Assembly (NCBI GenBank): GCA_951828385.1
Contig: OX639973.1
Location: forward strand, 2,329,564-2,393,563
Direction of reading: 5' to 3'
Length of the DNA stretch: 64,000 nt
Origin: an uncultured Poribacteria bacterium
GTDB taxonomy: Bacteria; Poribacteria; WGA-4E; WGA-3G
The position numbers and the translations under genes are program-made. The notes beneath the pieces were generated by a model. The model worked only from the letters and a program-made list of their open reading frames with translations, ran no database searches and was not told the DNA's origin. Positions 6,025 to 45,307 of the stretch are shown piece after piece (the stretch's first letter is position 1; the number at the start of each line of letters is the position of its first letter).

Positions 6025-6070
6025 GTTCTAAAGTTTCTCCTTTATTTTTTTGCGGGAGCGGTTTCTAACC

Positions 6071-24857: not shown

Positions 24858-26437
24858 GTGATAGCACCCACTACCTAAAGGCAGGGGCTTCGGTTTCATA
24901 GCGACTGCGGTTTTCTCATGAATGGTTATTGGTTGTTGGTTGTTGGTTATTGGAAAGAGAGGAAACACCCTATCAAAAACACCTCTTTCTTAACCAATTA
25001 CTATTAACTATTAACCAACCACTAAAAAACCGTCTTATTTTCGCTCCACCCGCGGGCGTTTCCCTGGAGTCTCCTACACTACAGGCATATCGTCAGATAA
25101 CGGCTATCCCTGCCCGCAAAATGTTTATCGCAGCGTTTATGTCTCTATCGTGGTGTGAACCACATTCAGGACATGTCCACTGCCTATCGTCCAATGTTAG
25201 GGTTTCGTTATGAAAACCGCAATCACTACAAGGTTTTGTTGTAGCCGTCCATTGTCCGACTTGTTTGAAATGACGCTTATGTTTTTGACACTTATATGCC
25301 AATATCTCAACAAACTGATAGAAGGCGAGGTCAGAGACTTTACGACCCCACAAGCGTTTCATACCGTCAAGGTTTAACGTCTCGATGAAAATCCTATCAA
25401 ACTTTTTACAAAGTTTAGAGGCAAGTTGCCAATGAAAGTCTTTGCGTTGATTGCTGATTTTCCGATAAAGCCGTGCGAGCTGTCTCACGCAACGCCACCA
25501 ACCGTTAGAACCTTTTTGCTTACGGCTAAGGTCTTTATTGAGAGACCGAAGTTTGTTCAAGGAGTGCTTCAAAGGTTGTGGGTGTTGGATTTTCTCACCC
25601 GTGCTCAGTGTCAAATAAGCGTCTTTCATACCGAAATCTGCCCCAACGCTCTTACCTGTTGTCGGCAGTGGTTTGAAATCTGTGTAGGTTGTTGTTATGC
25701 ACAACCAATAGTCGCCACAACTATCACGTTTGATTGTGATATATCTGAGAGTCCCATGCCATTGGCGGTGTTTATGAAACGTATATGGCACTTTATCAAG
25801 TTGCCACTTCCGTGTCTTTGGATTCCATTTGCGAAACGTCAACGTGATACGATTATTTTTCAGAGACCACCCCGATTCTCCGGGGTAGGTGATAGACTTA
25901 AACTTGTGTCTCGGTTTAATTTTCGGTCTACCGCCAAGTTTCTTGAAAAATCTATCGTATGCCCTATCAATGCGTCTCAGTTCCTGTTGGATCGCTTGAC
26001 TCGGCAATGCCTTCCAATGCGGGTGCGTCGTCCCTTTCAAAACTTTCACGTGGTCGCACATACCCTCAAAGTTGACGGACGGCAACCCGTCTTTATGGCG
26101 TTGACGCTGCCACTCATGGAAGTAGACATGCACCTGCCACATATCGTCAAGCAAGTTACCAATTCGTATCGTGTTAGATTGTTTCCCAAGCGGGTATTTA
26201 TAGGTTTTCATGGACTATCAAGTCTCAAGTCTTTAACCCCTAAACAGTGGGTAGGCAGACACATTGCCTTGCGACAACGCTGTTTATGTCTGCCAACTTG
26301 ATACTATCATTATACAACATTTTTAGGTGAATGTCAAATCTTTTTTGACACAAACCCTTTGCCCGCCTACATCCCGGGGTCCCCACCCGTTACTGGGAAG
26401 GGGCAAGCTAAAGCATGGGGTCTTGGCGGGAAAATTG
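24858..26437 (-). mobile_element. IS200/IS605-family (TnpB-only) element, TAM TTAT (TTTAT)
   Basis: Left end follows TTTAT and right end terminates TCAC; excision restores the VOC frame GAT TTT TAT|AGT TCC with no target duplication. Confidence 0.9.
25093..26211 (-). CDS. tnpB: RNA-guided endonuclease TnpB
   Basis: GADFG, IFIETLNL, CSDCG/CPECG, HDRDINAAINI; RuvC triad intact. Confidence 0.95.
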   Translation of the reverse strand: MKTYKYPLGKQSNTIRIGNLLDDMWQVHVYFHEWQRQRHKDGLPSVNFEGMCDHVKVLKGTTHPHWKALPSQAIQQELRRIDRAYDRFFKKLGGRPKIKPRHKFKSITYPGESGWSLKNNRITLTFRKWNPKTRKWQLDKVPYTFHKHRQWHGTLRYITIKRDSCGDYWLCITTTYTDFKPLPTTGKSVGADFGMKDAYLTLSTGEKIQHPQPLKHSLNKLRSLNKDLSRKQKGSNGWWRCVRQLARLYRKISNQRKDFHWQLASKLCKKFDRIFIETLNLDGMKRLWGRKVSDLAFYQFVEILAYKCQKHKRHFKQVGQWTATTKPCSDCGFHNETLTLDDRQWTCPECGSHHDRDINAAINILRAGIAVI

Positions 26438-31405: not shown

Positions 31406-32344
31406 CTAAGATGAACCGTTAGCATCAACGGCCTCGCTTAAACTTAAAGTTTGCTCAAATGCCTCAAGGCTCGGTGTCTGTAATGCTTCGCGGCGCAACT
31501 GTCTGAGATGCTGCACTGCGTCAATGCGCTCAAGCACTGATGCCACTGTTTGCAAGTCGCGTGCGTTGAAACGCACCTCCAAATTTTCAAGGATGCCCTC
31601 AATAAGGCTTTCTCGTGTTCCGCGTTCAATGCCTTGTTGTAGGAAATGTTGAATAACCGATGATTCTTGCATGATCGTCTCCATTATAGTCTCACGAATG
31701 GTTGGATAATCAAATACTAACCCGCCCAAAATCGCTAAATCTGCCAAATAATCCGCCTTTGCTATATCATCCTGTGGTACGGCATTGGCAGCCTCAACGC
31801 ATTGCCGGATCCACTCCTTAGGTTCCATATTTTCAGGGTGTTTCATCAACGGCGTAAAAGGTATCAAGCCTTTCATCCCTGCTTCCAGAAACGAGGAACC
31901 TTCCAAATCGTACAGCCGGATCACCTTGTATCGGATGCGAATCTCATAGTCTTGCATCTCTTGAATATATTCACCGGGGTCCGTCCTGCCCGCCCGCGGG
32001 TGCAGGTAGATAACATGTGAATAAACAGGTAACTGAAAAGACTCAATCCCTCTACCAGCATAACCTGCCATCCTATACGGCATCGGTACCTCTCTGCTGT
32101 CGTGCGTTTGCATCTCCAAATGCACAATAACTTCTTTGCCGTGGACGTTCGCGCGTATAAAACTATCAGCACGATTGGATTTAACAGTAGGCTGCTCGGT
32201 TTCAAGCACCTCAATCACCTCTGCTCCCGGGATGCCGAGGCTAAACCTTAACCAGTCCCCAGGGTTTTGGTGAATCAGTACTTTTGAAACAGTATCATAT
32301 TGTCCGCGCGCGTTGGAAGCTGAAAGTTCCTATTTTCTTGCCAT
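31406..32344 (-). pseudogene. Rpn-like (PD-(D/E)xK) nuclease gene with a TAG at codon 5
   Basis: ATG 32344 reads MARK*ELSASNARGQYDTVSKVLIHQNPGDWLRFSLG in frame with the 270-aa ORF (RADSFI, HLEMQT, MPYRMAGY). Confidence 0.7.
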
Positions 32345-32937
32345 ATCGGATACACTTATTGCGGATGCAATGTCTGCACTGTTCTCTCCATTCGCGTTAA
32401 TACGTCGCTGTTGCAGTTTACCATACATCGACCGTGAGTGTCAAATAATTTTGGGTTCCTGCAGAGTTATTTATGTTCGGGCAATTGTGACGTTTGAATG
32501 TGACGTGTTTAAACGTCACTGTGACGTGCAGATGTCAAGCGGCCCGTGGGAATGTGACGTTTTTTGCTATTTTTTCCGTGTGAGGTGTTCGCTTGATTCA
32601 ATTTTAACTTTTAGTTATGAATACACTTTAATTATATAACGTTCTCGTTAAAAAATGTTACACCAGTGTAACATTTGGCGTACAGGGCATATCGGCAGAG
32701 AATCCAGTGGATATAAGGGTTCATAGTCGTTTTATTTTCCGATTTTCCGCGGTGAAAAAAATAATTTGGTGTAACATTTTGGATCCTGTGAACAGCATCA
32801 GGGTCAAACATGAATCCTATTTCCTGTATAGTATAATTATATCATGTATTTGTGCAGGTGTCAAGTTTTTTACTTTCTTGAATATTGGTGGAAAATCTGT
32901 TAGGATATTGGAGAAAGAAAAAACAGGAGGATGGACG

Positions 32938-33333
32938 ATGGCAAACAATGCAACACTTGAGAGAATCTACCCATTTTTTATCGTTAAAAACCTTGCGGAG
33001 TCAATAGACTTCTACAATCAAAAACTCGGTTTCGAGACAGATATGCTTATCCCAGAAGATGATCCATTTTTCGCGATCGTGTCTCGCGATAACGTGCGGA
33101 TACTCCTCAAACATATCACTGAAGATATTCATCCAGTACCGAACCACACACGGCACGAGTGGGCAAGATGGGATGCGTTCATTCTGGTTTCTGATCCTGA
33201 CGCGTTGTTTGCTGAGTTTCAGTCTCGTGGATTGGCGTTCCACGAACCGCTTGCGGACACCGACGACGGTCTCCGTGCTTTTGAACTCAAGGATCGTGAT
33301 GGGTATGTTTTGTGTTTTGGGAGATCGCTTTGA
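32938..33333 (+). CDS. VOC/bleomycin-resistance family protein
   Basis: AGGAGG before ATG 32938; VKNLAESIDFYNQKLGF, GLRAFELKDRDGYVLCFG. Confidence 0.88.
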   Translation: MANNATLERIYPFFIVKNLAESIDFYNQKLGFETDMLIPEDDPFFAIVSRDNVRILLKHITEDIHPVPNHTRHEWARWDAFILVSDPDALFAEFQSRGLAFHEPLADTDDGLRAFELKDRDGYVLCFGRSL

Positions 33334-33530
33334 GCGGAGAATTATCTGAATCGCGGATTACACGGATTACGCAGATTTACGCGGAAGGAGTTCTCTCGCT
33401 CCAGCGGAGCAACATGTCTATAGCCAAAACGTCTAACAAGGCCGGCACTCCAGCGGAGTGTTATGTTTGAGAAATTTCCAAAGTTGGGTATAAACAAAAG
33501 GCAGGACTGTTTGCCTGCCAATGATTAGCA

Positions 33531-33734
33531 TTATTTTGACCGGCTGAATCTTTTCACAGCATCATTGAGTGCTTTGATGTATGCTGCCTGTGCTTTCTTT
33601 ACTTTAGATGTATGACTCCTATTTGAAACACGAACTGCTTCCTGAACCGCATCAATTGCCCTACGAACTGCTTCACTATCAGCTCCACTTTTTCTGACAG
33701 TAGAGAATATATAGTCAGTTTTCATACGAGACAT
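33531..33734 (-). CDS. Small basic helical hypothetical protein (cassette 1)
   Basis: Own promoter TTGCAA-17-TATAAT (33797-33769), AAGGAGG RBS, and terminator GGCAGG..CCTGCC-TTTT at about 33496-33520. Confidence 0.7.
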   Translation of the reverse strand: MSRMKTDYIFSTVRKSGADSEAVRRAIDAVQEAVRVSNRSHTSKVKKAQAAYIKALNDAVKRFSRSK

Positions 33735-34178
33735 CAGTTTGTCCTCCTTGTTAGTAAAGACAATTTAAATTATATATCTGTTCGCAAAAAATTGCAACTT
33801 AAATTTTTATTTTATCTGGGTTTCCGATCCCGACGCGCTGTTTGCTGAGTATCAGTCTCGTGGGTTGGAATTCCACGAACCCCTCGCAAATACCGACGAC
33901 GGTCTCCGCGCCTTTGAACTCAAGGATTATGACGGGTATGTTTTGTGTTTTGGGAGATCGCTTTGAGCGGAGAATTGTCTGAATCGCGGATTACACGGAT
34001 TACGCAGATTTACGCGGAAGGCGTTCTCTCGTTCCAGCGGAGCAACATGTCTATAGCCAATACGTCTAACAAGACCGGCACTCCAGCGGAGTGCTATGTT
34101 TGAGAAATTTCCAAAGTTGGGTATAAATGATGGGAAACCACTTTGATAGGAGATGGAATGAAAATGGGCAATTCTATG

Positions 34179-34514
34179 CTAATTCTTTGTAGCATTTTGT
34201 GAGAGAAATACTGCTAAATCCTCACATTTACCCACATGAAAGTCAACACTGACCTGCTTCAGTATAGCGTCAAGTTTTCCCGCTTTTACGTCTTCCTTTA
34301 ACTGCTTGTCCCACGCTTGCCAATCTGCTTCAAGAACTTGATAAAGCGTATTTTCAAGGGTTTCTAATAATACGGCTTGTGTATCTGCCTCATACTTCAC
34401 CTTGGGATGTTCCTGTATCCATCCTATCCATCGCTTGCCATTTTTTTCGATTTTGGCGGTATAGATCTCGCCATCTTCCACATCATGAATTTTAACGGTT
34501 TGGATGTGGTCCAT
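34179..34514 (-). CDS. HicB-like orphan antitoxin (cassette 2)
   Basis: YTAKIEKNGKRWIGWIQEHPKV..ADTQAVLLETL resembles the HicB RNase H-like part; promoter TTGACT-17-CATAAT (34592-34564); GGAGGAG RBS. Confidence 0.6.
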   Translation of the reverse strand: MDHIQTVKIHDVEDGEIYTAKIEKNGKRWIGWIQEHPKVKYEADTQAVLLETLENTLYQVLEADWQAWDKQLKEDVKAGKLDAILKQVSVDFHVGKCEDLAVFLSQNATKN

Positions 34515-34783
34515 GTTTTGCTCCTCCGATAAGGTCTACCTGCACGATATTTGGTAATACAGTATTATGTGATAATTGGGGTGAAAAGTCAAATTTATTC
34601 TCAATGTCCAAGCGTACCGTTTGCTGAGTTGCAGTCGCGTGAACTGGCGTTCCACGAACCGATCGCCGACACCGACGACGGTCTCCGCGCTTTTGAACTC
34701 AAGGATCATGATGGATATGTGTTGTGTTTTGGGAAACCACTTTGAATAGATAAGCGGTAAAATGGATAATAAAAATTCAAGGT

Positions 34784-37231
34784 TTAAGGAGCTAAGAGTT
34801 TTACACAACGGAATCCAGTAGTGTTACTCGTACGCACTGGTGAATCGCTGGAGCGATAAGCAATTCGCACGTAGTTTGCATTACTGGACCAGGAACCACC
34901 ACGCAATACACGGCTAGCGTTGAGATTCTTAAAATCACGAACAATACTATAAATACTCCCACCAGCAACGGGATTTCGACGCGCAGAGTTGGCATAAAAG
35001 CTGCTGCTATACGCGTCAAGACACCACTCCGATACATTTCCTACCATATCATATAGTCCATAAGGATTCGCTTGGTAATTGCCAATACGGGTGGCACTAC
35101 CAACATTCTGGTCATAGTTTGCTGTTTGGGAATTAACCAGATTACCCGACAGATAGTTGTTGACCAATCCACCACGCGCTGCCTTCTCCCATTCTGCTTC
35201 CGTTGGTAGGCGTTTCCCTTTCCACTGTGCATACGCCATAGCTGCATACCAGCTTACCCAAGTAACAGGGTGATTACCTTTCCCGTACGGATATCTATTT
35301 CCAATCCAATGTTTCAAGTAATCACCATCATGGTATGCCTGAAGAATGCGATCTTTTCGCCACTGTGGATTGGCATCAACAAATTTTTTATAATCCTCAT
35401 TAGTTACCTCATACTTGTCAATGTAAAATGAATTAACATAAACTGTATGCACTGGTTTCTCATCGGAATACGCAGCAGCATCGTTACTTCCTATACGAAA
35501 GTTGCCAGCAGGAATCAGAACCATTCCTGCTAATTCCATGGAATTGCGTGTTGGAAGTTGCAATGGACTAACCCTGGAAGTCGATCTTTGAATCTCTGTG
35601 TCCTTTTCAGCAAGCTGCCTTTTCAACTTTTTGTTTTCGCTATTAAGTGTCCTTTTTTCGTCTTCCAGCCTCTGAGAACCATCTTTCAGCGTTTGAAAGT
35701 TGCTCGAAAGTTGTTGAATTTCAATATCCTTGGCTTTAACTTTATGAAGAGCCGCGTTTTTTTCTTCTATTTGTGCTGCTAATACCGCAGCACAAACGAC
35801 TAAGACTATACCGAAGAAAAATGTAAGATACTGCCAAATATTAGTCTCAGACTTTGGTGTTGGTGCCACAGGGTCTGGTGTTGTTGGGCCAGGATTTGAT
35901 ATTGGATTAGGAGGTGATGGTTTCGTAAGAGACGGGGACACTGGCTTAGTCGACTTTGAAGGCACAAAATGTAACAGATTTATAGTGTCCAAAAGTTGAC
36001 GGGCAGGCTGATAGTGTGGATCAATCCTTAAGGCTGCATTTGCCGCCACTGTCGCCCTGATGTTACTGCCCGATTTAAAATAGGCAAGACCCAACGCATG
36101 GTGTGCTTCTTTATAGTTAGGCTCGTCTTTTATCAGTTGCTCAAACGTGTTAATGGCATCGGCATACCGTTTACTGTGTAAAAAAACACGCCCGATACCG
36201 TAGCGTGCCTTCTCATAGTTGGGGTCAAGTGCTATCGCCTTTCGGAACTCTGCAAGTGCCTCGTTATACCGTTCATCGTTTAGAAGTACCTCCCCCCGAT
36301 TGCTACAGGTATTGGCATTCGGTTTTGGCAATATCGCTTCCAAGGGTGCTAATTGATCAATAGAAGTTTTAGCACAAAAGTCCTTCAACGTTGCTGCCAA
36401 CTGTTGAACGTCAGGCGATAACTTTTCAAGTTCTTGGAAAATGTCTGATTGGTCAGGATTTTCAAAATCCTCCTTTGAAAATAGTAAGCCTCTTTCGGTT
36501 TTATCTTTAACCCGATTCCAAAGTTCAGGTTTTTCTGCCAAACTCAGAAAGGAAAGGTAAATAACCAATTCCGAGAAATAGTCAACCTTTTCGTTGGCTT
36601 GACCACCACTTACCATTCTTGTCGGGTGTTGGTATTCCGGTAGTCCGACAATTTGTTCTGGCTGCCCTTGAAGCGTTGGAACAAACAAACCGTCATAGTC
36701 TATCAATTTGAGTTTGACATCAACCCCATTTTGTTTGATCAGGATATTTCCATCTTGCAAATCGCCGTGTGAAACCCCATGTTTATGAAGAATAGCAACC
36801 ATTTCCTGAAAATCATCTGCTATAACTTTAAAGATGTGAGGACTCTGCAAATTTTGTTCAATAGACTCACGGAGTGATACGCCCTCTACCCATTCCATGC
36901 GTGTGATAGGGTGCTTTTTCCCCATCACCATAATGCCTTCAGGTTCATACCTAAAATCAACAAACCAAGGCAGGCTCACCTGTCGCAAATAATCTGATAT
37001 TTTTTCGTAGCGAATTTGTGCATCGTCAATACCTTTCGTCCAACAACGCAATGCCAAGGTTTTAGACGCTACATCAATAGGGAAAACGATTGAAAATCCT
37101 CCTGCGTATGACAGCACGAAGTTGTCTTTCCCCACCTTAACTTTTCCACCTTTGAGGTTTGGATCTTGCAAACTTAAATGAGGATAGTTCCGCACTGCCG
37201 TAGTATATTCGGCGGGGCTTGGCCACTGCAT
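34784..37231 (-). CDS. Ser/Thr kinase-like protein with TPRs, TM helix, coiled coil and C-terminal FGE-sulfatase domain
   Basis: AGGFSIVF, HGDLQDGNIL, LIDYDG, YQHPTR; TPRs (YNEALAEFRKAIALDPNY); TM YLTFFFGIVLVVCAAVLAA; RLPTEAEWEKAARGG...GFRCV. Confidence 0.88.
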   Translation of the reverse strand: MQWPSPAEYTTAVRNYPHLSLQDPNLKGGKVKVGKDNFVLSYAGGFSIVFPIDVASKTLALRCWTKGIDDAQIRYEKISDYLRQVSLPWFVDFRYEPEGIMVMGKKHPITRMEWVEGVSLRESIEQNLQSPHIFKVIADDFQEMVAILHKHGVSHGDLQDGNILIKQNGVDVKLKLIDYDGLFVPTLQGQPEQIVGLPEYQHPTRMVSGGQANEKVDYFSELVIYLSFLSLAEKPELWNRVKDKTERGLLFSKEDFENPDQSDIFQELEKLSPDVQQLAATLKDFCAKTSIDQLAPLEAILPKPNANTCSNRGEVLLNDERYNEALAEFRKAIALDPNYEKARYGIGRVFLHSKRYADAINTFEQLIKDEPNYKEAHHALGLAYFKSGSNIRATVAANAALRIDPHYQPARQLLDTINLLHFVPSKSTKPVSPSLTKPSPPNPISNPGPTTPDPVAPTPKSETNIWQYLTFFFGIVLVVCAAVLAAQIEEKNAALHKVKAKDIEIQQLSSNFQTLKDGSQRLEDEKRTLNSENKKLKRQLAEKDTEIQRSTSRVSPLQLPTRNSMELAGMVLIPAGNFRIGSNDAAAYSDEKPVHTVYVNSFYIDKYEVTNEDYKKFVDANPQWRKDRILQAYHDGDYLKHWIGNRYPYGKGNHPVTWVSWYAAMAYAQWKGKRLPTEAEWEKAARGGLVNNYLSGNLVNSQTANYDQNVGSATRIGNYQANPYGLYDMVGNVSEWCLDAYSSSFYANSARRNPVAGGSIYSIVRDFKNLNASRVLRGGSWSSNANYVRIAYRSSDSPVRTSNTTGFRCVKLLAP

Positions 37232-37251
37232 CCTTTGCTCCTGTTATTTTA

Positions 37252-38178
37252 CTAACTTTTATTGAGTAAAATCAAGACGAGAATGATAGCTCCGACAACA
37301 AATCCAAAAATTCCAGCCAGTATAACCCAAAAGACAAACGCTAAGTCATTAACAGGTGATTCAACATCTTCTGAAGTTTGTACTTCCAAAGAAAGCACCT
37401 CCGCGTCTTCCTCGGTTTCAGGTGGCTCAGTTTCTTCAATCGAAATTAACATTAACGTTACATCGTCATTTACCAAACGAATATTTTCGTTATCACGTGC
37501 TAAATCGACGAAACTATAAAATTGCTCACTAGTTCTTATCCGTTTGAGATGATTCAGAGCTTCTTCTACTTGATCAGTTTCTTCATGTTGCACAATCCAT
37601 TTCGCCAAAGCATCCGTTGCTAAGATAAACATATCTCCAGATTGGATTTCACCACCTACAAATTTCGGATTGTAGTGGTTCCTCTCAGGAAAGCTAGCAA
37701 AAGCCTCCGGATGATTTGTAAAATCCTCTGATCTTTCTATCAGATGACTCTTAAATCCAGAGTGACTCTTATGAAAGAGGCAGCTATCACCTATAATTAC
37801 TGCTTGCCATCTTCCTTCAGCTTTGTCAATTTCAAGCCCGATGAAAGTAGCAACAGCAGGCTCCCGGGCGTTAAATGAGTTTGTGAGATAAAATTGATTC
37901 CGTGCTTTAACTCTTTTTTCAACTCGTTTGTACCATTCCTCTTGAATAGGAACCAACCACTCTTTCCAATTTTCTCCACTTAAAAATAGATCAGATCTCT
38001 CACAAAAATGTTTGACAAGGAGTTCCGCCCAGCATTTTGGAAAGAAAGAGCGGGTTGCACCATCTGCAACAGCATAACGGGAGTGCTCTTTGTTTACCTC
38101 AAGAGCATCCTGGCAATCATCTAAACTTTCCGCTTTTTTATGTGTAATGAAGGGGTAGATAGTTAGATTCATCATCAC
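37252..38178 (-). CDS. PP2C-family phosphatase with C-terminal membrane anchor
   Basis: CQDA, AVADGAT, IGDSCLF, LATDAL, NDDVT; hydrophobic C-terminus. Confidence 0.88.
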   Translation of the reverse strand: MMMNLTIYPFITHKKAESLDDCQDALEVNKEHSRYAVADGATRSFFPKCWAELLVKHFCERSDLFLSGENWKEWLVPIQEEWYKRVEKRVKARNQFYLTNSFNAREPAVATFIGLEIDKAEGRWQAVIIGDSCLFHKSHSGFKSHLIERSEDFTNHPEAFASFPERNHYNPKFVGGEIQSGDMFILATDALAKWIVQHEETDQVEEALNHLKRIRTSEQFYSFVDLARDNENIRLVNDDVTLMLISIEETEPPETEEDAEVLSLEVQTSEDVESPVNDLAFVFWVILAGIFGFVVGAIILVLILLNKS

Positions 38179-38179
38179 T

Positions 38180-39421
38180 TTAGTCAGCAGGTGCGGGAAG
38201 AACTCGAACTCCCGTAAAACCCGTACTACCGAATTGCAAGAGTTGAATCATCAAAACTTCATCGGCATTATACACAAAACATCTCGCCCCTGGCTCCGGT
38301 GAAAATCCTGCTTCCTCCGCCGCTTTAAACAATTCTGGAGGTAAGGCACTAGAGATATCAAAGAGATATTCTGCCAATGGCTGACCTGAAAACTGATCTG
38401 TGTTATGCGACAAAGGCTTTACTATATTGCCTTTGTTAGTAATATGAATATTAAAAACTAGAGAGGCTCCATCTGTGGTGCGGGAATTCATTATTTTTCT
38501 TGCCGCATCTGCTGCTAAATCGGGACGGGTAGCGGCACCATCCGTAATGTTGATGACTATTGGAGGAAAAGCGTCAGGCCTGTCAGAAATCCAATCCTCA
38601 ATTATCTCTGCAGCACGTTCAAATGCCTTATGCATCGGTGTCTGACTATTTGCCTTAGGTTCTAACCATATTGGCACCTCACTTTCAATCTCAATTACTC
38701 CCCCTGCTCCATCGGGTATAAGCTTTTTGACTTTCTTTATATCAATGATGGCTGAGACAATCTCCGATATCATACCATCAACAACACAATTGACGTTCTC
38801 GCCATAACCAATCACGGAAATATGACATCGTTCTCTAATTGTGTCTCCGCTTCGGCATGCTAAAACGATGTTTTCAATGACAGAATTGACTGCCTGTGTT
38901 GCCCGTTCTGCCTTGGTTCCATCTCCAAAGGATTCCGACATTGACCAAGATTGATCGACCAAGATGATGATACAACCTGGATTAGATGTTCCAATAGGCA
39001 CATTGCTATATTCAGTTTTTGACGACGTTCCGATAGGAACAATGCTATCTGCCATTTCAGCGTCCTCTTTAAGAATGCCCTTCTCAAAATCAGAAGGGAC
39101 GATTTGATGAAACCGATTATGCCGAAGATTCTCGAAAAAAATCCATGAATCGCGTTCGATCCTGGGTGCGAACACACCAAAAGATGTGTCGGTTGCACTA
39201 AGATAACTTTTCAGTTGAGGAATCCCGTAATTTGCGCCGCCCGGCGATTTGCACTCTGCAATAGCGACGAATTTTCCATCAGCATCACGAAGTACAATAT
39301 CAGCTGCGCGATTATCCGTCCCCATCTGAATTTCGCATTCTTTGATAATAGAAAATTTCGAGAATTTCGGCTCAGAAAAATATGCAATGACTTCTTCTAC
39401 CACTTTATCTTCTGGTTTCAT
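38180..39421 (-). CDS. TerY-like vWA protein fused to an N-terminal HsdR_N-like PD-(D/E)xK domain
   Basis: N-terminal ADIVL...IAECK...QLKSYL; vWA MIDAS DQSWSM, TPMHKA, INITDG; consensus promoter TTGACA-16-TATAAT at 39490-39463. Confidence 0.85.
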   Translation of the reverse strand: MKPEDKVVEEVIAYFSEPKFSKFSIIKECEIQMGTDNRAADIVLRDADGKFVAIAECKSPGGANYGIPQLKSYLSATDTSFGVFAPRIERDSWIFFENLRHNRFHQIVPSDFEKGILKEDAEMADSIVPIGTSSKTEYSNVPIGTSNPGCIIILVDQSWSMSESFGDGTKAERATQAVNSVIENIVLACRSGDTIRERCHISVIGYGENVNCVVDGMISEIVSAIIDIKKVKKLIPDGAGGVIEIESEVPIWLEPKANSQTPMHKAFERAAEIIEDWISDRPDAFPPIVINITDGAATRPDLAADAARKIMNSRTTDGASLVFNIHITNKGNIVKPLSHNTDQFSGQPLAEYLFDISSALPPELFKAAEEAGFSPEPGARCFVYNADEVLMIQLLQFGSTGFTGVRVLPAPAD

Positions 39422-39777
39422 AAGCCTCCTGTTCTCCTGAGGTTTTGCTTTTTACCAAGTTGATTATATCACATATATGAATTATGTCAAGTTGTTTTTA
39501 AGCAAATTTTAGGGTATTAGTTCCGAAAATATAGGCGTAGTCAGCTGCTATACACATGCCGCCCTTACAGGGCTGAAGAGATAACAGGAACATTTTTCTA
39601 TACACATGCCGTTCCTACGGAACTGGGGAGAATTATACTTCTGGCATTCAAGACAAGGCGATTTATAGTAAAGTTTAGAATTAATAGAACACTCCGTGCC
39701 GGTTCGGTTAGGAAACCGAACCATAGGTGTCAATTTAGTCAAAGTCAATCCGTCCAGACCCGATAATTTTCAAGTCC

Positions 39778-40025
39778 CGTAGGTTGGGTTGAACGGCGTT
39801 GAGAAGTGAGATATTGACATGCCAAGCACACCTGAAAGTCAATATCCTGCCATATCCATTCAAGAACGTAGTGAAACCCAACTTTACACCGTCAGCACCC
39901 CGGAAACTTCCAAGCCAAAGCGTTGGGTTTCACTCGGTCTCTGATGGATGTGGTGTATCTGGAGATAGTTGTGTTTTTCTATGATTTTTCAGGGTTTTGG
40001 CGGCATCCGTTCTACCCAACCTACG
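39778..40025. repeat. Long palindromic REP/MITE element
   Basis: CGTAGGTTGGGTTGAACGG...AGTGAAACCCAAC mirrored by GTTGGGTTTCACT...CCGTTCTACCCAACCTACG. Confidence 0.8.
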
Positions 40026-40205
40026 GAAACTTGTTAAGAACATTAGAGTTTTTCGCGCAAGAATTGATATAAATTGAGTTAAACCTAAATAATGCATCAG
40101 TGACGCATTATCTTTGGGTGTCCTTATGTAAGCTTTGTCATAAAGTATCATAAATATCCCTTCTATACTTTAAATATCACAATAAATAGCTTTAGCCTTG
40201 AATTC

Positions 40206-41585
40206 TTAACTTTTGTTGAGTCTTGAGATAAGATATTCATGCCCGCGTTCGCCTTTAACTCTGTTACAATGACTACAGAGCAGTTGTAGGTTATCAATAT
40301 GGTCAGTTCCCCCAACGGATCTCGCGATAATGTGGTCTATCTCAAGGTGTTGGGTTTGGAAATGCTCACCACAGCCGTTGCAATGCCCGCCTTGCTCTCC
40401 ATATAACTGTGTCTTGTTTTCAGGGGCGTTGTATCTCGGAATTTCGCCTAAATCCGTGCGGTTGGGTACATCGTCGCGAGCGATAATATCCTCAAGCAAT
40501 CCCTGATCGTCTTTGATACGCTTGATAACTAACTCGGCGGCTTTCGCTGATATATCAATACCTATCCAATTCCGCTGAAGTCTATCCGCTGCTACGAGGG
40601 TTGTGGCGCACCCACAGAACGGATCGAAAACAACCTCGCTTTCGTTAGATGAGGCTTCGATGATTCTATTGAGTAGAGCAACGGGCTTTTGGGTTGGGTA
40701 GCCTGTGCGTTCACCATCTCCAGAAGCAAGATACGGTATATCTGTCCAAATATTTCCGACAGGTTCACCTGAGTATTCGTCAGCGTAAATCTTGTATCTT
40801 GGCTTTCCGGTTCTCGTCCAATAGATTAGGTATGGATTTTTGGCGATTCTTTCATCAAACGTTGATTGATTCCATCTCCACCCAATATTAGAAGTTACAG
40901 TTTTGTCTCCTATTTTACGAACTTCTCCTGCACTGGACCTATTTGAATTCTGTTCCAATGCTACATGCTGAAAACGACGACCCGTTTCGGTTTCTACATG
41001 CGGAAATTTCTTGTTTAATTTTTCTGTATCTAACTGTGAGGTTACTCTATTAGCCATAACGTGTGTGTTGTCTTTAGCATAGTAAAGAAGATGATCCGAT
41101 ATAGTGTCAACGGCAGATTTTGATAGACTATGTGCCGCATAACGTTTCCATGTTATGTCTGCTAAAAAATTTTCCTTTCCAAACACCGCATCCATAACTA
41201 ACTTGAGATAGTGGCTCATTGTCGGATCACAATGAAGGTAGATAGACCCTGTATTTTTTAGAACACGCTTCATTTCAAGTAACCGAGCAGCCATGTAAAT
41301 CAGGTAAGATTTATCACTGTTTGTCATCGCAGCGTGGATGACTCGGTTAAGGACTGGATACTTTGTCTCAATTAGATCAAGCCAAGCAACATCAACATCA
41401 TTGAGTGTCCACGTATCTTTGAATTCAGCACCGGCAGCCTTAGAGCCAATCGGTGCTGCATAATTCGCATTGCTATTAAAGGGTGGGTCAAGGTAGATTA
41501 ATTCTACTGATTCACTATTTATCCCACGCATTATAGGCAGATTATCACCCGTGAATATTGTCTTTGGTTTAATATTTGCAGCCAT
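40206..41585 (-). CDS. Beta-class amino DNA methyltransferase fused to a C-terminal HNH endonuclease domain
   Basis: GDNL, LIYLDPPF, YPTQKP, DPFCGCATT; then CNGC...DHIIARSVGGTDHIDNLQLLCSHCNRVKG. Confidence 0.9.
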   Translation of the reverse strand: MAANIKPKTIFTGDNLPIMRGINSESVELIYLDPPFNSNANYAAPIGSKAAGAEFKDTWTLNDVDVAWLDLIETKYPVLNRVIHAAMTNSDKSYLIYMAARLLEMKRVLKNTGSIYLHCDPTMSHYLKLVMDAVFGKENFLADITWKRYAAHSLSKSAVDTISDHLLYYAKDNTHVMANRVTSQLDTEKLNKKFPHVETETGRRFQHVALEQNSNRSSAGEVRKIGDKTVTSNIGWRWNQSTFDERIAKNPYLIYWTRTGKPRYKIYADEYSGEPVGNIWTDIPYLASGDGERTGYPTQKPVALLNRIIEASSNESEVVFDPFCGCATTLVAADRLQRNWIGIDISAKAAELVIKRIKDDQGLLEDIIARDDVPNRTDLGEIPRYNAPENKTQLYGEQGGHCNGCGEHFQTQHLEIDHIIARSVGGTDHIDNLQLLCSHCNRVKGERGHEYLISRLNKS

Positions 41586-41752
41586 ATAAAAGAATCTCAA
41601 AAATGTTGTCTTAACGCAAGTTGCCACCTATTTACTTACATAGCAAGCCGAAGAAAATGCGTGACGTTGATGGTACCTTTTTCTATTCTCACTGCGAAAC
41701 AATTTCACCCCTCTGGGGTGGGGAAAATGCCTAAGACTTTTCGTTGAAACGT

Positions 41753-42154
41753 TCAAATGTTTTGGTCAGTTGTTTTATCAGATGCCTTTTTTGCCAATTC
41801 TGGATAGAGATCTACTAACTTCGGAAAATGTTGATCCTCGTATGTCTTAATAAGCATACCGACCAACGCCATCGCTGCCGATAATGGGTGATTTTCATCC
41901 TCGCCGACACCATAGACTAAATCATCCAGTATCGCTGAAAGTTGTTGGTACTCGGTTTCTGTTACCGTGAGGCGGCTAAGGTCTTCATTCCGATTTACAA
42001 TGCCTGCTAACAGATTTAGTAAACCTATAAGCCACTGTGCGGCACTATCTGGGTCGGGCGCAACATCAACAGATTTCTGAGTGGAAGGTTGCGTAGACAT
42101 AAGTGACACCTGTTTTTGTAAGTCCTGTGTTGTGTTTAAGAATTCCTTGTTCAA
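41753..42154 (-). CDS. HigA-like antitoxin N-terminal fragment lacking an HTH
   Basis: YQQLSAILDDL...ENHPLSAAMALVGMLIKTYEDQHFP resembles HigA N-terminal helices. Confidence 0.5.
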   Translation of the reverse strand: MNKEFLNTTQDLQKQVSLMSTQPSTQKSVDVAPDPDSAAQWLIGLLNLLAGIVNRNEDLSRLTVTETEYQQLSAILDDLVYGVGEDENHPLSAAMALVGMLIKTYEDQHFPKLVDLYPELAKKASDKTTDQNI

Positions 42155-42416
42155 AAAACGTGAATATTGAATGTTTCGACAGAAGTATTCTTGCCGATAA
42201 CTCTAAATCTCTACCTTCTATCCTGTTAAGTGCCATGCAAATTATATATCGGTTTACAAAAGATTTCAAGGAAAAGATTGCCATAATAAATTTGACTTGT
42301 TAAATGGAATATGTTATCATATACAAAGATTAGTACGGTAAAATGGGTGCAGTTTATTCAAACTCACCTAAATAACGCGAAACTCACGTAAAAGTGAGAT
42401 TCATTTCTATAGGAGA

Positions 42417-43121
42417 TTGAACGGTATGAAAATTATGTATGTATTAGCAGGATTTGTGTTGATGATAGCCTTTTGTGTTATCAGCACGAGCGACATAGCA
42501 CAGGCGGAGGAAGTCTTGGGAACAGGAACGGATGAACTGTTAGGAGGCGACCTAACCGACCCAGAAGACGATGGTGATCCTGAAGCAGATAAGGATTACG
42601 ATGCCATTTTCTCAGCCAACGATGAACCGGGATTCGCGGGCGGGGAATTTGCGTTTAACGTCTTCGATAACCGCCTTGGCCCCAGCAATGACAAATGGTG
42701 CTGCGGACGTGGAGGCGGCATCCCAGATGAAGGTCTACACGTGACAGCTGAGTTTGAGGAGCAGTACGCATTGACACACTTCACTGTATCTTCAGCGAAC
42801 GATGTTCCTGCAAGGGACCCCACAGTGTGGGAGATTCAGGGGTCGAACGACGGCGAAGAGTTTGAGACCATCTTTGCTCACGACGGCGATAGTTTTTGGG
42901 ATCAGCGCCTGCAGGTCGTCCTTTTTGAGGCGGGGGAAGATTACGACAAACAAAAAAAAGGATATCGGTTTTTTCGGCATGTTACTTTTGACACCGCATC
43001 GAACCCGGCTGGGGCGTACTTTCAAATTGGCGAAATTGAGTTCTTCGGCGATGATAGTTTTCCCGTAGACCCAAGAACCAAGCTCGCAACCACATGGGGA
43101 CGCATCAAAAACGCCCGATAA
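42417..43121 (+). CDS. Secreted discoidin/F5-8-like protein with C-terminal KLATTWGRIK tail
   Basis: AGGAG before TTG; signal peptide; SANDVPARDPTVWEIQGSNDG, YRFFR, FQIGEIEFFG. Confidence 0.75.
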   Translation: MNGMKIMYVLAGFVLMIAFCVISTSDIAQAEEVLGTGTDELLGGDLTDPEDDGDPEADKDYDAIFSANDEPGFAGGEFAFNVFDNRLGPSNDKWCCGRGGGIPDEGLHVTAEFEEQYALTHFTVSSANDVPARDPTVWEIQGSNDGEEFETIFAHDGDSFWDQRLQVVLFEAGEDYDKQKKGYRFFRHVTFDTASNPAGAYFQIGEIEFFGDDSFPVDPRTKLATTWGRIKNAR

Positions 43122-43145
43122 ACGCAAATATCGAACATTTCCTAA

Positions 43146-43192
43146 AGCGGAAACCTGAATCCAGTAATAACTGGGTTTGGGTTTCCGTTTTT
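43146..43192 (+). terminator. Intrinsic terminator
   Basis: GCGGAAACCTGAATCCAGT-loop-ACTGGGTTTGGGTTTCCGT followed by a T tract. Confidence 0.75.
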
Positions 43193-43378
43193 CATATCCG
43201 CTTGAAACTGTATGGACTCTACTGGGGAGGAGCTTTTCGATTATAAATACATAGACCCCAGTATCGAAAACTGAATAACCCGGTACCATTCGCAGGATCA
43301 TGGCAACACATCTCTGCTTGCAAACTTACCCGAAACACGGTATAATAGGCGCAAATTTGTGCTTCAGCAGGAACCGGA

Positions 43379-45307
43379 ATGGAAACCAACGGAAACGCGA
43401 AACAGAACCTTGTTAAACCGCATATTCTGCTAATCGGGTTGGTACTCGTCGCTTTTAATAGCTACTGGTGCCTGATGGGGACAGAGGTATGGCACTCTAC
43501 GCAGTTAACGATCGCCTCACTGTTCTTTAATGCGGTTTTCACGCTCCTTGTCTTCGTACTTGCCAATTTATTACTACAGCGATTCCTGCCGCGGCTGGCG
43601 ATGTCGCAAGCCGACTTACAAACCATCTACGTCATGGTGGTCATGGTAACAACCATCAGTGGACATACCATGATGGGGTACCTCATCCCAGTCCTCGCGC
43701 ATACATTTCAGTTCGCGACCCCCGAAAATGAGTGGTTATCGCTCTTTGGAAACAGTATCCCGAGTTGGATCGCCGTCAAAAGCCCGCGTATCGTAGACGG
43801 GTTCTACAACGGAGATTCTACCCTCTATAATTCTGCCACTTTAAACGCGTGGATACCGCCGGTGCTATCTTGGTCCAGTTTTGTGATCGCGCTCTGGCTG
43901 ACGTTATTAGCCGTAACGATCTTTCTCCGTAAACAGTGGACCGAAAATGAACGCCTGAATTACCCAATCGTCCAACTCCCATTAGCGTTGACGAGCAACC
44001 CGAAACGTTTCTTTACTTCACCATGGATGTGGCTCGGATTCGCGCTTGCGGGTAGTGCAGAACTGCTAAATGGGCTGAGTTTCCTGTTTCCAGAGATCCC
44101 TTCCTTACCTATTAGAAACAAATCGCTTGGACAATTCAGTTCAAAGCCGTGGAGTGCGATGGGCCCGATTCGCATCTCCTTCTATCCGTTCAGCATCGGG
44201 TTGATGTTCTTCACACCGCTGGATCTCTCGTTTTCGTGCTGGTTTTTCTGGCTACTGACCCGTCTCCAGATGGTCGTGACAGATATGTTCGGCGCACGCA
44301 ATATCTATAACCTCGAACAGCAGACGGGGGCTTGGATAGCGTTCGGATGCATCCCGTTGTGGATGGGGCGACGGCACTATGGACGTATTATCCGCAAAGT
44401 TTTCGGGGTTGCGCAACGCCGTGGCGAACCACCGCCTGACGATTCCGGTGAACCGATGCGTTACCGCACGGCTGCCGGACTGTTCACCGTAGGGTTGATA
44501 TTCCTTTTCTTCTTCTGCTTTCAAATGGGGATGACGTTCTGGGCGATTGGACTCTTTTTTCTTTTCTACTTTCCGATGATTCTCGGTATCACCCGTATCC
44601 GCGCCGAAATTGGGCCGCCCCTGCATCAACTCGTCCTTGTCGACCCCGGACGGACGATGGTACTTGCACTCGGAACACGCCGACTCGGCACCGGCAATTT
44701 GATGGGACTGACGTTCCTCTATCCGTTTGTTCGCTGTTTCCGCGCGCACCCGACACCGAGCGAACTGGAGGCATTCCGTCTGGCAGAGCAGAGTCGCATC
44801 GGGTACCGGCAACTGCTTATCGGGATGATATTGGCGATTGTGTTCGGTATCCTGATAACGTTCTGGGCATATCTACACGTCCTTTACGATATGGGTGCTG
44901 GCAGCAAAGCCCGCGGCTGGATTGTTTATATGGGGTGGGAGACGTTCAACCGTCTGCAAACGTGGCTTGTCAATCCGCGGGAGCCGGGCGTGCCAGAACT
45001 CGGCGTTATTGGCAGTAGTTTCCTATTCACGATATTCCTGATGGTCATGAAAATACGGTTTCTGTGGTGGCCGTTACATCCTGCGGGTTACGTTTTAGTC
45101 AGCGGTACAGGCATGGGAAGGTTGTGGTTTACAATCTTCTTGGGTTGGTTAGCAAAAGCAATCGTGTTAAAGATTGGCGGTGTGAAACTCTACCGACAAG
45201 CCGTGCCGTTCTTTTTGGGGTTGATCTTAGGGGATTACACGCTCGGATGTATCTGGAGCCTCATCGGATTGGTACTACAGATACCGACGTACATTGTCTG
45301 GCATTAA
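43379..45307 (+). CDS. Polytopic membrane protein (DUF6785/DUF6784-like putative transporter), copy 1
   Basis: Many TM helices; LRKQWTENERLNYP, RIRAEIG, WWPLHPAGY, PFFLGLILGD. Confidence 0.75.
   Translation: METNGNAKQNLVKPHILLIGLVLVAFNSYWCLMGTEVWHSTQLTIASLFFNAVFTLLVFVLANLLLQRFLPRLAMSQADLQTIYVMVVMVTTISGHTMMGYLIPVLAHTFQFATPENEWLSLFGNSIPSWIAVKSPRIVDGFYNGDSTLYNSATLNAWIPPVLSWSSFVIALWLTLLAVTIFLRKQWTENERLNYPIVQLPLALTSNPKRFFTSPWMWLGFALAGSAELLNGLSFLFPEIPSLPIRNKSLGQFSSKPWSAMGPIRISFYPFSIGLMFFTPLDLSFSCWFFWLLTRLQMVVTDMFGARNIYNLEQQTGAWIAFGCIPLWMGRRHYGRIIRKVFGVAQRRGEPPPDDSGEPMRYRTAAGLFTVGLIFLFFFCFQMGMTFWAIGLFFLFYFPMILGITRIRAEIGPPLHQLVLVDPGRTMVLALGTRRLGTGNLMGLTFLYPFVRCFRAHPTPSELEAFRLAEQSRIGYRQLLIGMILAIVFGILITFWAYLHVLYDMGAGSKARGWIVYMGWETFNRLQTWLVNPREPGVPELGVIGSSFLFTIFLMVMKIRFLWWPLHPAGYVLVSGTGMGRLWFTIFLGWLAKAIVLKIGGVKLYRQAVPFFLGLILGDYTLGCIWSLIGLVLQIPTYIVWH

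Follow-up and report, generated by a model that had tools for sequence, protein, structure and literature searches.

Behind a single gene in a Poribacteria genome stands an array of small genes, separated from one another by partial copies of that gene's own 3' end. The gene belongs to the VOC / glyoxalase-bleomycin-resistance family and lies in the window, the stretch of 64,000 nucleotides that we analysed (contig OX639973.1), which comes from a complete 6.66-Mb Candidatus Poribacteria MAG of a sponge symbiont. We favour, with moderate confidence, the reading that the array was built by successive displacement, in which recombination at the homologous anchor gene was combined with an illegitimate joint (HFIR or Campbell-type insertion-duplication), and that it was then shuffled between its repeats. 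What appears to be new here is that a process proposed for T6SS immunity and Rhs/CDI orphan arrays may operate, in variant form, at a non-toxin VOC gene.

Architecture of the VOC locus

The locus is a hotspot flanked by conserved core genes, with the VOC gene on its left. The intact anchor gene (32938..33333, plus strand) encodes a protein of 131 aa, residues 14-127 of which match Pfam PF00903 (E 4e-11; 43.8 bits against a cut-off of 20.6), and this places it in the superfamily; matches to BLMA-type bleomycin-binding profiles were weak and stayed below the cut-off. A full-length orthologue was present in nearly all Poribacteria loci examined. When the 6.66-Mb genome was searched with a VOC DNA profile (nhmmer), exactly three copies were detected, all at the locus: the intact gene, copy A (E 1.7e-137); copy B (33810/33819-33966, plus strand, profile positions 240-396, E 3.4e-48); and copy C (34607/34619-34745, plus strand, profile positions 258-396, E 1.5e-38). 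These E values exclude a chance origin of the copies. One further, marginal match lay elsewhere in the genome (E 0.0045). Copies B and C are displaced gene ends that are 88.5% (over 148 bp) and 89% (over 127 bp) identical to copy A, and copy C would be the oldest displaced end of the array. Copies A and B are mosaic, with 82% identity at positions 240-363, 97% from position 364 through the end of the tail described below, and a breakpoint near 364.

A stub of 16 bp (34131-34146, plus strand, profile positions 381-396), with the same sequence as the final 16 bp of copy C, is followed by the spacer that normally lies 3' of the VOC stop codon, so that stub and spacer together occupy 34131..34181 (plus strand). 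The stub spacer matches the one that separates the intact VOC gene from a TA cassette in three other genomes (G014, G023 and G027), and its 26-nt motif occurs only once in the genome. The sequence-only reading that preceded this analysis had the repeat end at the VOC stop codon; instead, about 28-39 nt of spacer past the stop also belong to each copy, the stub included. The layout that it described, with an intact VOC gene, two 3' partial copies, a 16-bp stub and two minus-strand cassettes, was recovered at every position.

Between copy A and the first cassette lies tail A (33334..33491, plus strand), which is outside the VOC gene and consists of two dispersed repeat units, R1 (~33340-33383) and R2 (~33396-33480). 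Tail B (33967..34124, plus strand), behind copy B, is 96% identical to it, and contig depth over this copy was 5- to 10-fold higher. A tail of 160 bp had been reported as part of the array and is indeed present, but it is composed of two genome-dispersed repeats, and 31 of its 34 matches in its own genome comprise the tail alone. It follows only some VOC copies and folds into a hairpin (z = -2.6). R1-type units were found 7-32 nt past the VOC stop in many other genomes. A search of positions 32200-35000 against Rfam returned no match at E <= 1.

Past copy C, the rest of the variable island (34746..43300, annotated with Pfam and NCBIfam) holds kinase-TPR-FGE, PP2C and HSDR_N-vWA genes that form a TerY-P-type operon (34784-39421, minus strand), a DNA methyltransferase-HNH gene (40206-41627, minus strand) and genes of 133 and 234 aa. 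This stretch is missing or different in most relatives, and the conserved core starts again with a DUF6785 gene (43379-45307).

The two cassettes and an illegitimate joint

Cassette 1 (33492..33809, minus strand) contains a terminator-like hairpin (33500-33519), an ORF of 67 aa (33531-33734) and a promoter-like site (33797-33769). The ORF is intact in 9 of the 9 genomes that carry it, with 69-97% amino acid identity, and is single copy in the genome. Its protein matched no Pfam or NCBIfam family at the curated cut-off and had no usable match in the Atlas.

Cassette 1 abuts VOC position ~237 in the window and in G018, at a joint without homology, and in 6 other genomes it runs on into a different gene that is unrelated to VOC. 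Cassette 1 was thus joined illegitimately to copy B, which bears out the illegitimate second junction that had been suspected; the test covers this junction, the only one for which an uninterrupted form was found. The junction between cassette 2 and its fragment (fragment start 258-264) recurs in 8 arrays. When the window was compared with G018, which represents a second species, the tail was 93.0% and cassette 1 94.0% identical, and the VOC copies on both sides 78-83%.

Cassette 2 (34179..34606, minus strand) contains an ORF of 111 aa (34179-34514) and a promoter-like site (34592-34564). We regard the 111-aa gene as a candidate for the antitoxin half of a ParE-like toxin-antitoxin pair, now orphaned. 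In G014, G013b and G021 its homologue is preceded by a gene of 94 aa, and the G021 copy, the one that was scanned, matches ParE_like PF24732 (26.2 bits against a cut-off of 24.4). In the window the adjacent toxin gene has been deleted and the partner gene alone is left. The toxin gene was lost at least 2 times, with different deletion ends, and the locus thereby illustrates how orphan antitoxins originate. The family of the 111-aa protein comprises 159 proteins, of which the sole named member is from Poribacteria. The protein had no match in Pfam or NCBIfam, and a sequence search of the PDB gave chance-level matches only (E >= 0.46). Its structure model (pLDDT 72) retrieved nothing at E <= 0.001 with Foldseek and only generic long-helix matches in a wide VIA-align search (Z <= 5.1); an Atlas lead (0.76) pointed to a cluster named HicB antitoxin. 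The HicB-like label that the sequence-only reading gave to the gene is at best tentative. The expectation that the cassettes carry defence or TA genes was right for cassette 2, a TA remnant without its toxin, but not for cassette 1, to which no function could be assigned.

The minus-strand promoter-like sites of the two cassettes match the consensus at 10 of 12 positions each and lie 13-26 nt from the fragment starts. A consensus-like site was found for each cassette, as the sequence-only reading had proposed. Since the scan gave 7 sites in total, close to the 5.0 ± 2.4 obtained in shuffled sequences, we treat these promoters as consensus matches only. Far from having arrived recently, the cassettes have long resided in the genus, and the divergence of cassette 2 is roughly that of the core flanks.

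Assembly support and strain variants

Public short-read contigs from 3 studies bridge every junction of the array, each in as many as 4 runs; some of the runs may be the source sample. One contig (X2 record 15) spans 34098-34714 without a difference, and three others (X2 record 14 and X4 records 22-23) span cassette 1 and copy B. A contig of 1319 nt from run X4 joins 33950 to 34798 and represents a strain that has neither tail B nor the stub nor cassette 2. Variant contigs at 92-97% identity over the same stretch indicate that several strains are present in the sample. Contig joints with short sides, from 33966 to 34273 (side of 28) and from 34746 back to 33914 (side of 41), were set aside, as were skips of 611-620 between the two tails, because they may stem from repeats or from other strains. 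Among the 80 metagenome contigs retained from a scan, 6 were Poribacteria-like, too few for a comparison at strain level. RNA runs contained only small portions of the stretch.

Recurrence across Poribacteria

Partial VOC copies were detected in 18 of 71 Poribacteria loci, 27 copies in total. All 27 are on the strand of the gene, 26 lie downstream of it and 23 extend at least to profile position 392. Their starts fall into about 12 classes from position 96 to 353, plus 381 in the window, and the repeats are 16 to ~257 bp long across the loci, which agrees with the earlier remark that the fragment lengths differ, unlike a fixed att core. At the right-hand core gene no comparable scars were found in the 29 loci that reach it. 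Cassette number and order differ between genomes, as expected of an accretion hotspot without an integrase. Inserts can be large, as in G007 (16 kb) and G013a (8.5 kb), and cassette boundaries are conserved between species at a size of 0.3-0.8 kb.

In 4 of 4 tests the sequence that follows a fragment was collinear with the sequence that follows the intact VOC gene of another genome: G014 with G025 (84% over 459 bp), G013b with G004 (94% over 957 bp), the window stub with G023 (80% over 303 bp) and G021 with G014 (83% over 960 bp). The prediction that a fragment and its cassette would be matched by a full-length VOC gene with the same context elsewhere was therefore confirmed at the level of context, and it fits a newest cassette adjoining the intact gene. 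Because one genome per species was sampled, no fresh event with an identifiable donor and recipient was seen.

The fragments are not plain alleles of other strains, as had been supposed. Decay is evident in several, among them one with an in-frame stop and one with a frameshift, and non-synonymous and synonymous differences number 61 and 82 in the fragments against 114 and 265 in the full-length genes. For several, the nearest relative is another copy within the same genome (the second full-length G018 gene for the G018 fragment, the full-length G014 gene for the G014 fragment). For copies B and C the best full-length alleles were 92% and 87% identical, with many near ties, and 139 nt at ~90% identity cannot resolve alleles. 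Plain tandem pairs of full-length VOC genes occurred in only 2 of the 71 loci (L104/G018 and L108), so that relatives do not carry an invariant tandem of paralogues from which the fragments could be simple deletions. We also compared decay between proximal and distal copies. Of 10 arrays, 8 had the lower value in the distal copy and 1 the higher value there, with 1 tie. We rejected this comparison as evidence of stacking order, as the fragments do not span the same part of the gene and some of the arrays are related by descent.

Recombinases and similar scars

No recombinase family was detected by Pfam or NCBIfam among the ORFs of 17998-45307. A search for a recombinase acting in trans had been suggested, and the genome does contain one PF00589 match, at 4.86 Mb, and six small PF00239 matches, but none is at the locus, the nearest PF00239 match being 360 kb away. 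The VOC loci of five other genomes (G007, G013, G015, G018 and G021) contained neither a PF00589 nor a PF00239 match, and the G007 and G015 genomes have no serine recombinase at all. Neither an integrase of its own nor direct repeats of constant length, as would mark an integrative element, were found at the locus. A gene for the competence channel ComEC is present in the genome.

A genome-wide scan for 3' ends duplicated behind genes, which omitted three chunks (324-372 kb), gave 188 rows after a first filter and 38 after a stricter one. The candidates inspected were the VOC locus itself, tandem paralogues, multi-copy domains or wrong-strand ORFs, and none was a clean second case. At 1.935 Mb, the best of the remaining cases involves a duplicated T9SS sorting domain that exists in ~50 copies, which makes it ambiguous. 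Similar scars are rare elsewhere in the genome; this weighs against the displacement model, which would have to account for their concentration at the VOC gene.

Displacement at the anchor gene and other explanations

In successive displacement, DNA of a relative that carries the VOC gene and its downstream neighbours would pair by homology with the resident VOC gene, its anchor, and its far, non-homologous end would be joined illegitimately within the resident gene. By an equivalent route the fragment could circularise and integrate through a single crossover of the Campbell type. The outcome would be an intact VOC gene followed by the newcomer's cassette, with the former 3' end of the resident, and all that lay behind it, shifted downstream as a promoterless and harmless fragment. 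Repeated rounds would stack cassettes, the newest adjoining the gene. The VOC repeats could later serve as portable homology arms, between which recombination of the RecA type would delete, swap and convert cassettes within and between lineages, and no dedicated integrase would be needed. The parts of RecA and DNA uptake, like the order of events, are what we infer. Features expected of an HFIR array were found here: an upstream anchor with 3' remnants in the same orientation, a non-homologous second junction (cassette 1 / copy B), and remnants that keep their former neighbours. Classical HFIR mostly yields deletions, and its topology does not easily accommodate a joint that falls within the paired part of the anchor.

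The copies might instead have arisen in place, with hardly any horizontal input or none, by tandem duplications with one end in the VOC gene and the other downstream, after which parts were deleted and the rest diverged. The tandem full-length pairs in 2 of 71 loci, the duplicated fragment-plus-flank units carried by L096 and L133, the fragments whose nearest relative is a copy of the same genome (G018, G014) and the 97% identical 3' end plus tail of copies A and B are all compatible with such an origin. We nevertheless consider it unlikely, since most fragments are flanked by different cassettes on either side, their contexts match arrangements behind the intact VOC gene in other genomes, cassette order varies among genomes, and the tail and cassette 1 are far more alike between the window and G018 than are the VOC copies that flank them. 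A site-specific recombinase whose gene lies elsewhere (Xer or one of an unknown family) might insert cassette circles at the VOC stop codon or immediately behind it, in the manner of integron cassettes or the pdif modules of Acinetobacter; this would explain why the gene end and ~28 nt of spacer are common to all copies, why the copies have a single orientation and lie on one side only, and why scars are concentrated at this gene and the cassettes are small. Repeats of 16 to ~257 bp have no fixed core, however, and the spacer motif is found nowhere else in the genome; third-position diversity at the VOC 3' end (0.27) is not lowered against the 0.25-0.49 found elsewhere, with no synonymous drop there. 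The genome has a single tyrosine recombinase, arrays occur in genomes without serine recombinases, and a repeat search found no inverted repeats at the cassette ends, all of which makes this explanation improbable.

Tandem displaced 3' ends are typical of islands that integrate into the 3' ends of genes, and the large inserts of G007 and G013a could likewise suggest that larger integrative elements targeted the VOC 3' end, were later stripped of the integrase and most of the cargo, and left the fragments as attL/attR remnants. The large inserts that were checked contained no integrase or serine recombinase, the cassette boundaries are conserved across species at 0.3-0.8 kb, and no VOC relative was found in the viral contigs searched; we hold such an origin to be slightly more improbable still. 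It is very doubtful that the partial copies act as silent donors for gene conversion that vary the VOC C-terminus, in the manner of pilS. Arrays of promoterless 3' copies and the mosaicism of copies A and B would suit such a role, but the 3' region of VOC is under purifying selection (N/S 114/265), there are fragments with stops and frameshifts, and a small cytoplasmic-type protein has no reason to vary. Chimeric collapse or expansion of strain variants during assembly, which the several strains of the sample might invite, is hardly credible given the bridged junctions and the same architecture in many independent assemblies, complete chromosomes included.

A more speculative and rather unlikely thought is that Poribacteria run an integrase-free, integron-like store of small genes by means of VOC 3' arms, or that an unseen recombinase reads the gene end together with the 28-nt spacer. 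If the former were true, small genes (TA remnants, anti-addiction antitoxins, unknown 67-aa genes) would be captured, kept and exchanged between species by host recombination; the latter would explain some 12 independent partial duplications at one gene and on one side.

Relation to known systems

Insertion-duplication of circular DNA with a homologous segment (Campbell-type) has been used in pneumococcal and cyanobacterial genetics, and results in an intact gene, the insert and a partial copy that begins where the cloned segment began. The topology is the same as in the Poribacteria array, but that is a laboratory procedure with ligated circles, and a natural source of circles in Poribacteria is hypothetical. 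The minimal mobile elements of Neisseria are alternative small cassettes between conserved genes that are exchanged by homologous recombination in the flanks and have no recombinase of their own. Such elements substitute for one another and are not known to leave partial copies of a flanking gene, whereas the Poribacteria cassettes accumulate and are separated by partial VOC copies. Like an integron, the locus is an array of small cassettes that would grow at one end beside a fixed point. Unlike in integrons, no IntI adjoins the array, and the repeat is a gene piece of variable length; the search for inverted repeats showed no attC-like palindrome at the cassette ends. Nor does the locus have the integron layout, in which promoterless cassettes point the same way and are read from a Pc: both ORFs are on the minus strand, convergent with the VOC gene, and the cassettes face the anchor with promoter-like sites of their own.

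A literature search on toxin-antitoxin recombination in Poribacteria and on integrase-independent cassettes with partial duplication found nothing on such arrays. Gene gain and loss in uncultivated sponge symbionts have to be read from scars because laboratory crossing or transformation is impossible, and the VOC locus is an unusually legible record, in which some dozen independent duplications of one gene end are seen across the phylum. What stood behind the gene before the next arrival is kept by each copy, and an ordered history of acquisition may be read from them. Long-read population studies of symbiont recombination would also have a concrete target in this locus. If displacement is the mechanism, as we are inclined to believe, the locus shows joining by anchor homology and an illegitimate end, or Campbell-type integration, at work in nature beyond toxin-immunity loci.

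The closest parallel is in the effector-immunity arrays of the Vibrio cholerae T6SS and the orphaned 3' strings of Rhs/CDI loci, for which HFIR was proposed and ordinary homologous recombination was held responsible for most later exchange (PMC5361080). As described there, those arrays have in common with ours a conserved upstream anchor, insertion beside it, older modules pushed downstream, anchor 3' remnants that stay in the array, and no integrase (PMC5361080). The displaced 3' ends of those arrays encode different toxins and the retained genes are the immunity genes for them, by which selection explains their retention (PMC5361080). The Poribacteria cassettes are unrelated to the function of the anchor, and the displaced ends are non-toxic VOC copies. 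Since these displaced ends are homologous to one another, true direct repeats arise in Poribacteria.

Structure of the array and its assembly support

The genome of the window is assembled as a single 6.66-Mb contig, and its named relatives are Candidatus Poribacteria MAGs of sponge symbionts. The array starts with an intact plus-strand ORF (copy A, 32938-33333) encoding a 131-aa protein of the glyoxalase/bleomycin-resistance (VOC) superfamily (PF00903, 43.8 bits), whose likeness to bleomycin-binding proteins was weak and sub-threshold. Directly 3' of it lie a 158-bp tail (tail A), minus-strand cassette 1 with a 67-aa ORF, a VOC 3' end of 148-157 bp (copy B) with a second tail (tail B) attached, a 16-bp stub that matches the end of copy C exactly, minus-strand cassette 2 with a 111-aa ORF, a third VOC copy of 127-139 bp (copy C) and a TerY-P type operon of kinase, PP2C and vWA genes. 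A DNA profile built from 31 full-length VOC genes detected three VOC copies in the genome, all in the array. Sequence reading and alignment of the copies bore out the anatomy described in the sequence-only reading. The VOC 3' copies are repeated as stated there, but the repeats end about 28-39 nt beyond the stop codon, not at it. A semi-conserved spacer of that reach belongs to every repeat, stub included, and resembles the ribosome-binding site plus start codon of a gene that once lay downstream.

Each junction of the array was bridged by contigs from four public runs of three studies, whose independence is partial because some may derive from the source sample. A 617-nt contig spans tail B, the stub, cassette 2 and copy C with zero differences, and the architecture was seen again in many other assemblies, complete chromosomes among them. 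The assembly of the array is sound. In run X4 a 1319-nt contig connects 33950 with 34798 through 68 intervening letters, the length of the copy C end plus spacer, and represents a close strain with the order cassette 1, fragment, operon, without tail B, stub and cassette 2. Run X8 contains a contig (depth 12, side 41) that leads from 34746, just past copy C, back to 33914 in copy B, which may reflect yet another arrangement, a circular or tandem form, or an effect of mapping among the repeats.

The tails (33340-33491 and 33973-34124) had been counted with the repeat proper and do not belong to it: they are built from two short repeat units dispersed through the genome, where 31 more partial copies occur. 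Over the tail B copy (bins 33905-34078), contigs were about 5- to 10-fold deeper than over cassette 1. Related units (AATTGTCTGAATCGCGGATTAC..., plus a AGGATTTACAGGATTTTAGG variant) occur 7-32 nt behind the VOC stop, at differing offsets, in many Poribacteria, and the tail units may form a MITE- or REP-like family.

A hotspot flanked by core genes

On the left the locus is bordered by two GFO/IDH/MocA oxidoreductase genes, followed in some genomes by a 270-aa gene and then by VOC, and on the right by a DUF6785 gene (43379-45307). Both flanks are kept in most of 36 same-genus genomes, while the distance between them is 10 kb in the window and varies among genomes, with about 0.26 kb in G028 and about 19 kb in G007 as the extremes; the VOC locus is a hotspot with core genes on both sides. 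The 270-aa ORF (31406-32218, minus strand), present in some relatives, absent in others and without a Pfam or NCBIfam match, is a second presence/absence polymorphism, left of VOC. The variable island includes a gene (40206-41627) for a 473-aa protein in which an adenine DNA methyltransferase is fused to an HNH nuclease domain of IscB/Cas9 type; its orthologues (92-93% identity) stand directly behind VOC in G008 and G027.

We surveyed 71 Poribacteria loci with 10-kb flanks and found extra VOC matches in 19. Partial copies numbered 27, spread over 18 loci; a second full-length VOC in tandem occurred at 2 of the 71. All 27 partial copies have the strand of the gene, 26 lie downstream of the intact VOC and 23 reach profile position 392 or further (the gene ends at 396). 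Their starts fall into about 12 classes (96, 140-141, 181, 240, 250, 258-264, 271-280, 287-311, 329-331, 343, 351-353, and 381 for the window's stub), and the start class is tied to cassette identity: behind the toxin-antitoxin (TA) cassette comes a fragment with its start at 258-264 (eight arrays), behind a 234-aa gene one with its start at 299-305, and behind cassette 1 one with its start at 240, the last only in the window and G018. No such scars were found in the right-hand core gene at the 29 loci reaching it. Perhaps only the VOC side bears scars because a 3' piece without a promoter would do no harm, whereas a 5' piece of the right-hand membrane-protein gene would be expressed.

The genes of the tandem full-length pairs (L104 of G018, 10001-10854; L108, 10001-10850) are 58-63 bp apart, and the second is the more diverged (in G018 its amino-acid identity with the protein of the window is 76%, against 85% for the first).

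Contexts and decay of the fragments

The sequence behind a partial copy was collinear with that behind the intact VOC of another genome in all four comparisons. The order of 115 bp, cassette 1 and next gene stands behind a 258-type fragment in G014 and G013b and behind the intact VOC in G025 and G004 (G014/G025, 84% over 459 bp; G013b/G004, 94% over 957 bp). Likewise, the window's stub is followed by spacer and 111-aa gene as is the intact VOC of G023, and the 301-type fragment of G021 by the TA cassette as is the intact VOC of G014. In six genomes cassette 1 continues into another minus-strand gene, whereas in the window and G018 it ends a few bases past its promoter-like site and adjoins VOC at about position 237. 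The two continuations share no similarity, and the right end of cassette 1 is an illegitimate joint.

Copies A and B form a mosaic. Of the 28 differences between them, 22 fall within VOC positions 240-363 (82% identity), and the remaining 6 are spread over the 191 nt of positions 364-396 plus tail (97% identity). When the window is compared with G018, identity is higher in the tail (93.0%) and cassette 1 (94.0%) than in the VOC sequences on either side (78-83%); the block of tail and cassette 1 was therefore exchanged, with breakpoints in the repeats.

Decay was measured as differences from the full-length consensus over the last 126 nt. The 31 full-length VOC sequences carried 114 non-synonymous and 265 synonymous differences, the nine fragments spanning this region 61 and 82; one fragment has an in-frame stop and another (G034) a frameshift. 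The fragments are decaying. Their resemblance to alleles of different strains had accordingly been overstated, as several decay and several have their nearest relative within their own genome.

Cassette genes

The 67-aa ORF is unbroken in all nine genomes with cassette 1 (69-97% amino-acid identity, indels in frame) and is for this reason a real gene; Pfam, NCBIfam and Atlas searches gave no family assignment for its product. The 111-aa protein, a candidate antitoxin, belongs to a family of 159 members in which the sole source name is Poribacteria hypothetical protein. Its predicted model (pLDDT 72; three strands, then long helices) gave no significant match in fold searches, and its HicB likeness is limited to an Atlas lead (0.76). 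A 94-aa gene precedes the 111-aa gene in G014, G013b and G021, and since the G021 protein, the only copy scanned, passes the ParE_like Pfam cut-off, the complete cassette 2 is a toxin-antitoxin pair. The window has no toxin gene, and there the spacer adjoins the 3' end of the 111-aa gene; G023 and G027 also lack the toxin with different deletion ends, so it was lost at least twice. The 111-aa gene is full-length at five of nine loci and truncated or broken at four. The defence content had been put too high.

Successive displacement as a proposed explanation of the array

The simplest account of the array is successive displacement. Incoming DNA with VOC and its downstream neighbour would pair with the resident VOC, and its far end would join illegitimately within that gene; by another route, a circularised fragment would integrate through one crossover. 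The resident 3' end and everything behind it would shift downstream as a silent fragment, and general recombination between repeats could later delete, convert or swap cassettes. PMC5361080 proposes the same displacement model for Vibrio cholerae T6SS immunity arrays and also for strings of orphaned Rhs 3' regions. Unlike those systems, the VOC array acquires true direct repeats, because displaced ends are homologous to new ends.

A minority reading is that a site-directed mechanism acts at VOC. It draws on some 12 independent events concentrated at this one gene without a clean second case of comparable scars in a genome-wide scan, which the displacement account leaves unexplained. No dedicated enzyme was found among the ORFs of the island, whose matches are kinase, PP2C, vWA and methyltransferase-HNH proteins, plus unassigned ones. 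Across the whole 6.66-Mb genome, tyrosine recombinases matched once, at 4.86 Mb (4862232-4862768), and serine recombinases six times; these six matches are small, and the closest to the locus is 360 kb away. In five other array-bearing genomes neither type had a match within the VOC loci, and two of the five lack serine recombinase matches altogether. Synonymous diversity does not drop at the VOC 3' end, the spacer motif has no other occurrence in the genome, and a ComEC gene is present. The sequence-only reading, with accretion without an integrase, an anchor combined with an illegitimate joint, and the stacking of cassettes, was for the most part right in outline. On present evidence the process is a variant of an already-known displacement, not a new class of genetic element, and the locus deserves population-level long-read study.

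A locus elsewhere in the genome, L147 (G000:C1:1930000-1940000), may be a second insertion-duplication. There (5070-6753) a large gene has its final 362 bp repeated 961 bp downstream (88.7% identity), with a weak-PIN 163-aa ORF and a 60-aa ORF between the copies and a clear PIN gene after them; the gene carries a T9SS C-terminal sorting domain, and the about 50 copies of this domain in the genome limit that reading.

Other elements near VOC

Repeats and TA genes abound in the genome of the window, which has the one tyrosine recombinase match; such matches number one to three in five relatives. Two minus-strand IS605-family TnpB genes (OrfB_IS605 plus Cas12f1-like TNB; 21761-22873 and 25093-26211) lie 7-11 kb upstream, and no TnpA was recognised beside either. 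Upstream of VOC, a 230-nt element (32640-32880) without an Rfam match has a perfect 14-nt inverted repeat (32652-32665/32767-32780), GTGTAACATTT half-sites and a minus-strand promoter match (12-of-12 consensus, 32864-32836); similar sequences occur elsewhere in this genome and in other Poribacteria genomes. Five GTGACG/CGTCAC motifs clustered in 85 nt (32480-32565), including a 12-nt inverted repeat (32487-32498/32508-32519), look like an iteron or operator.
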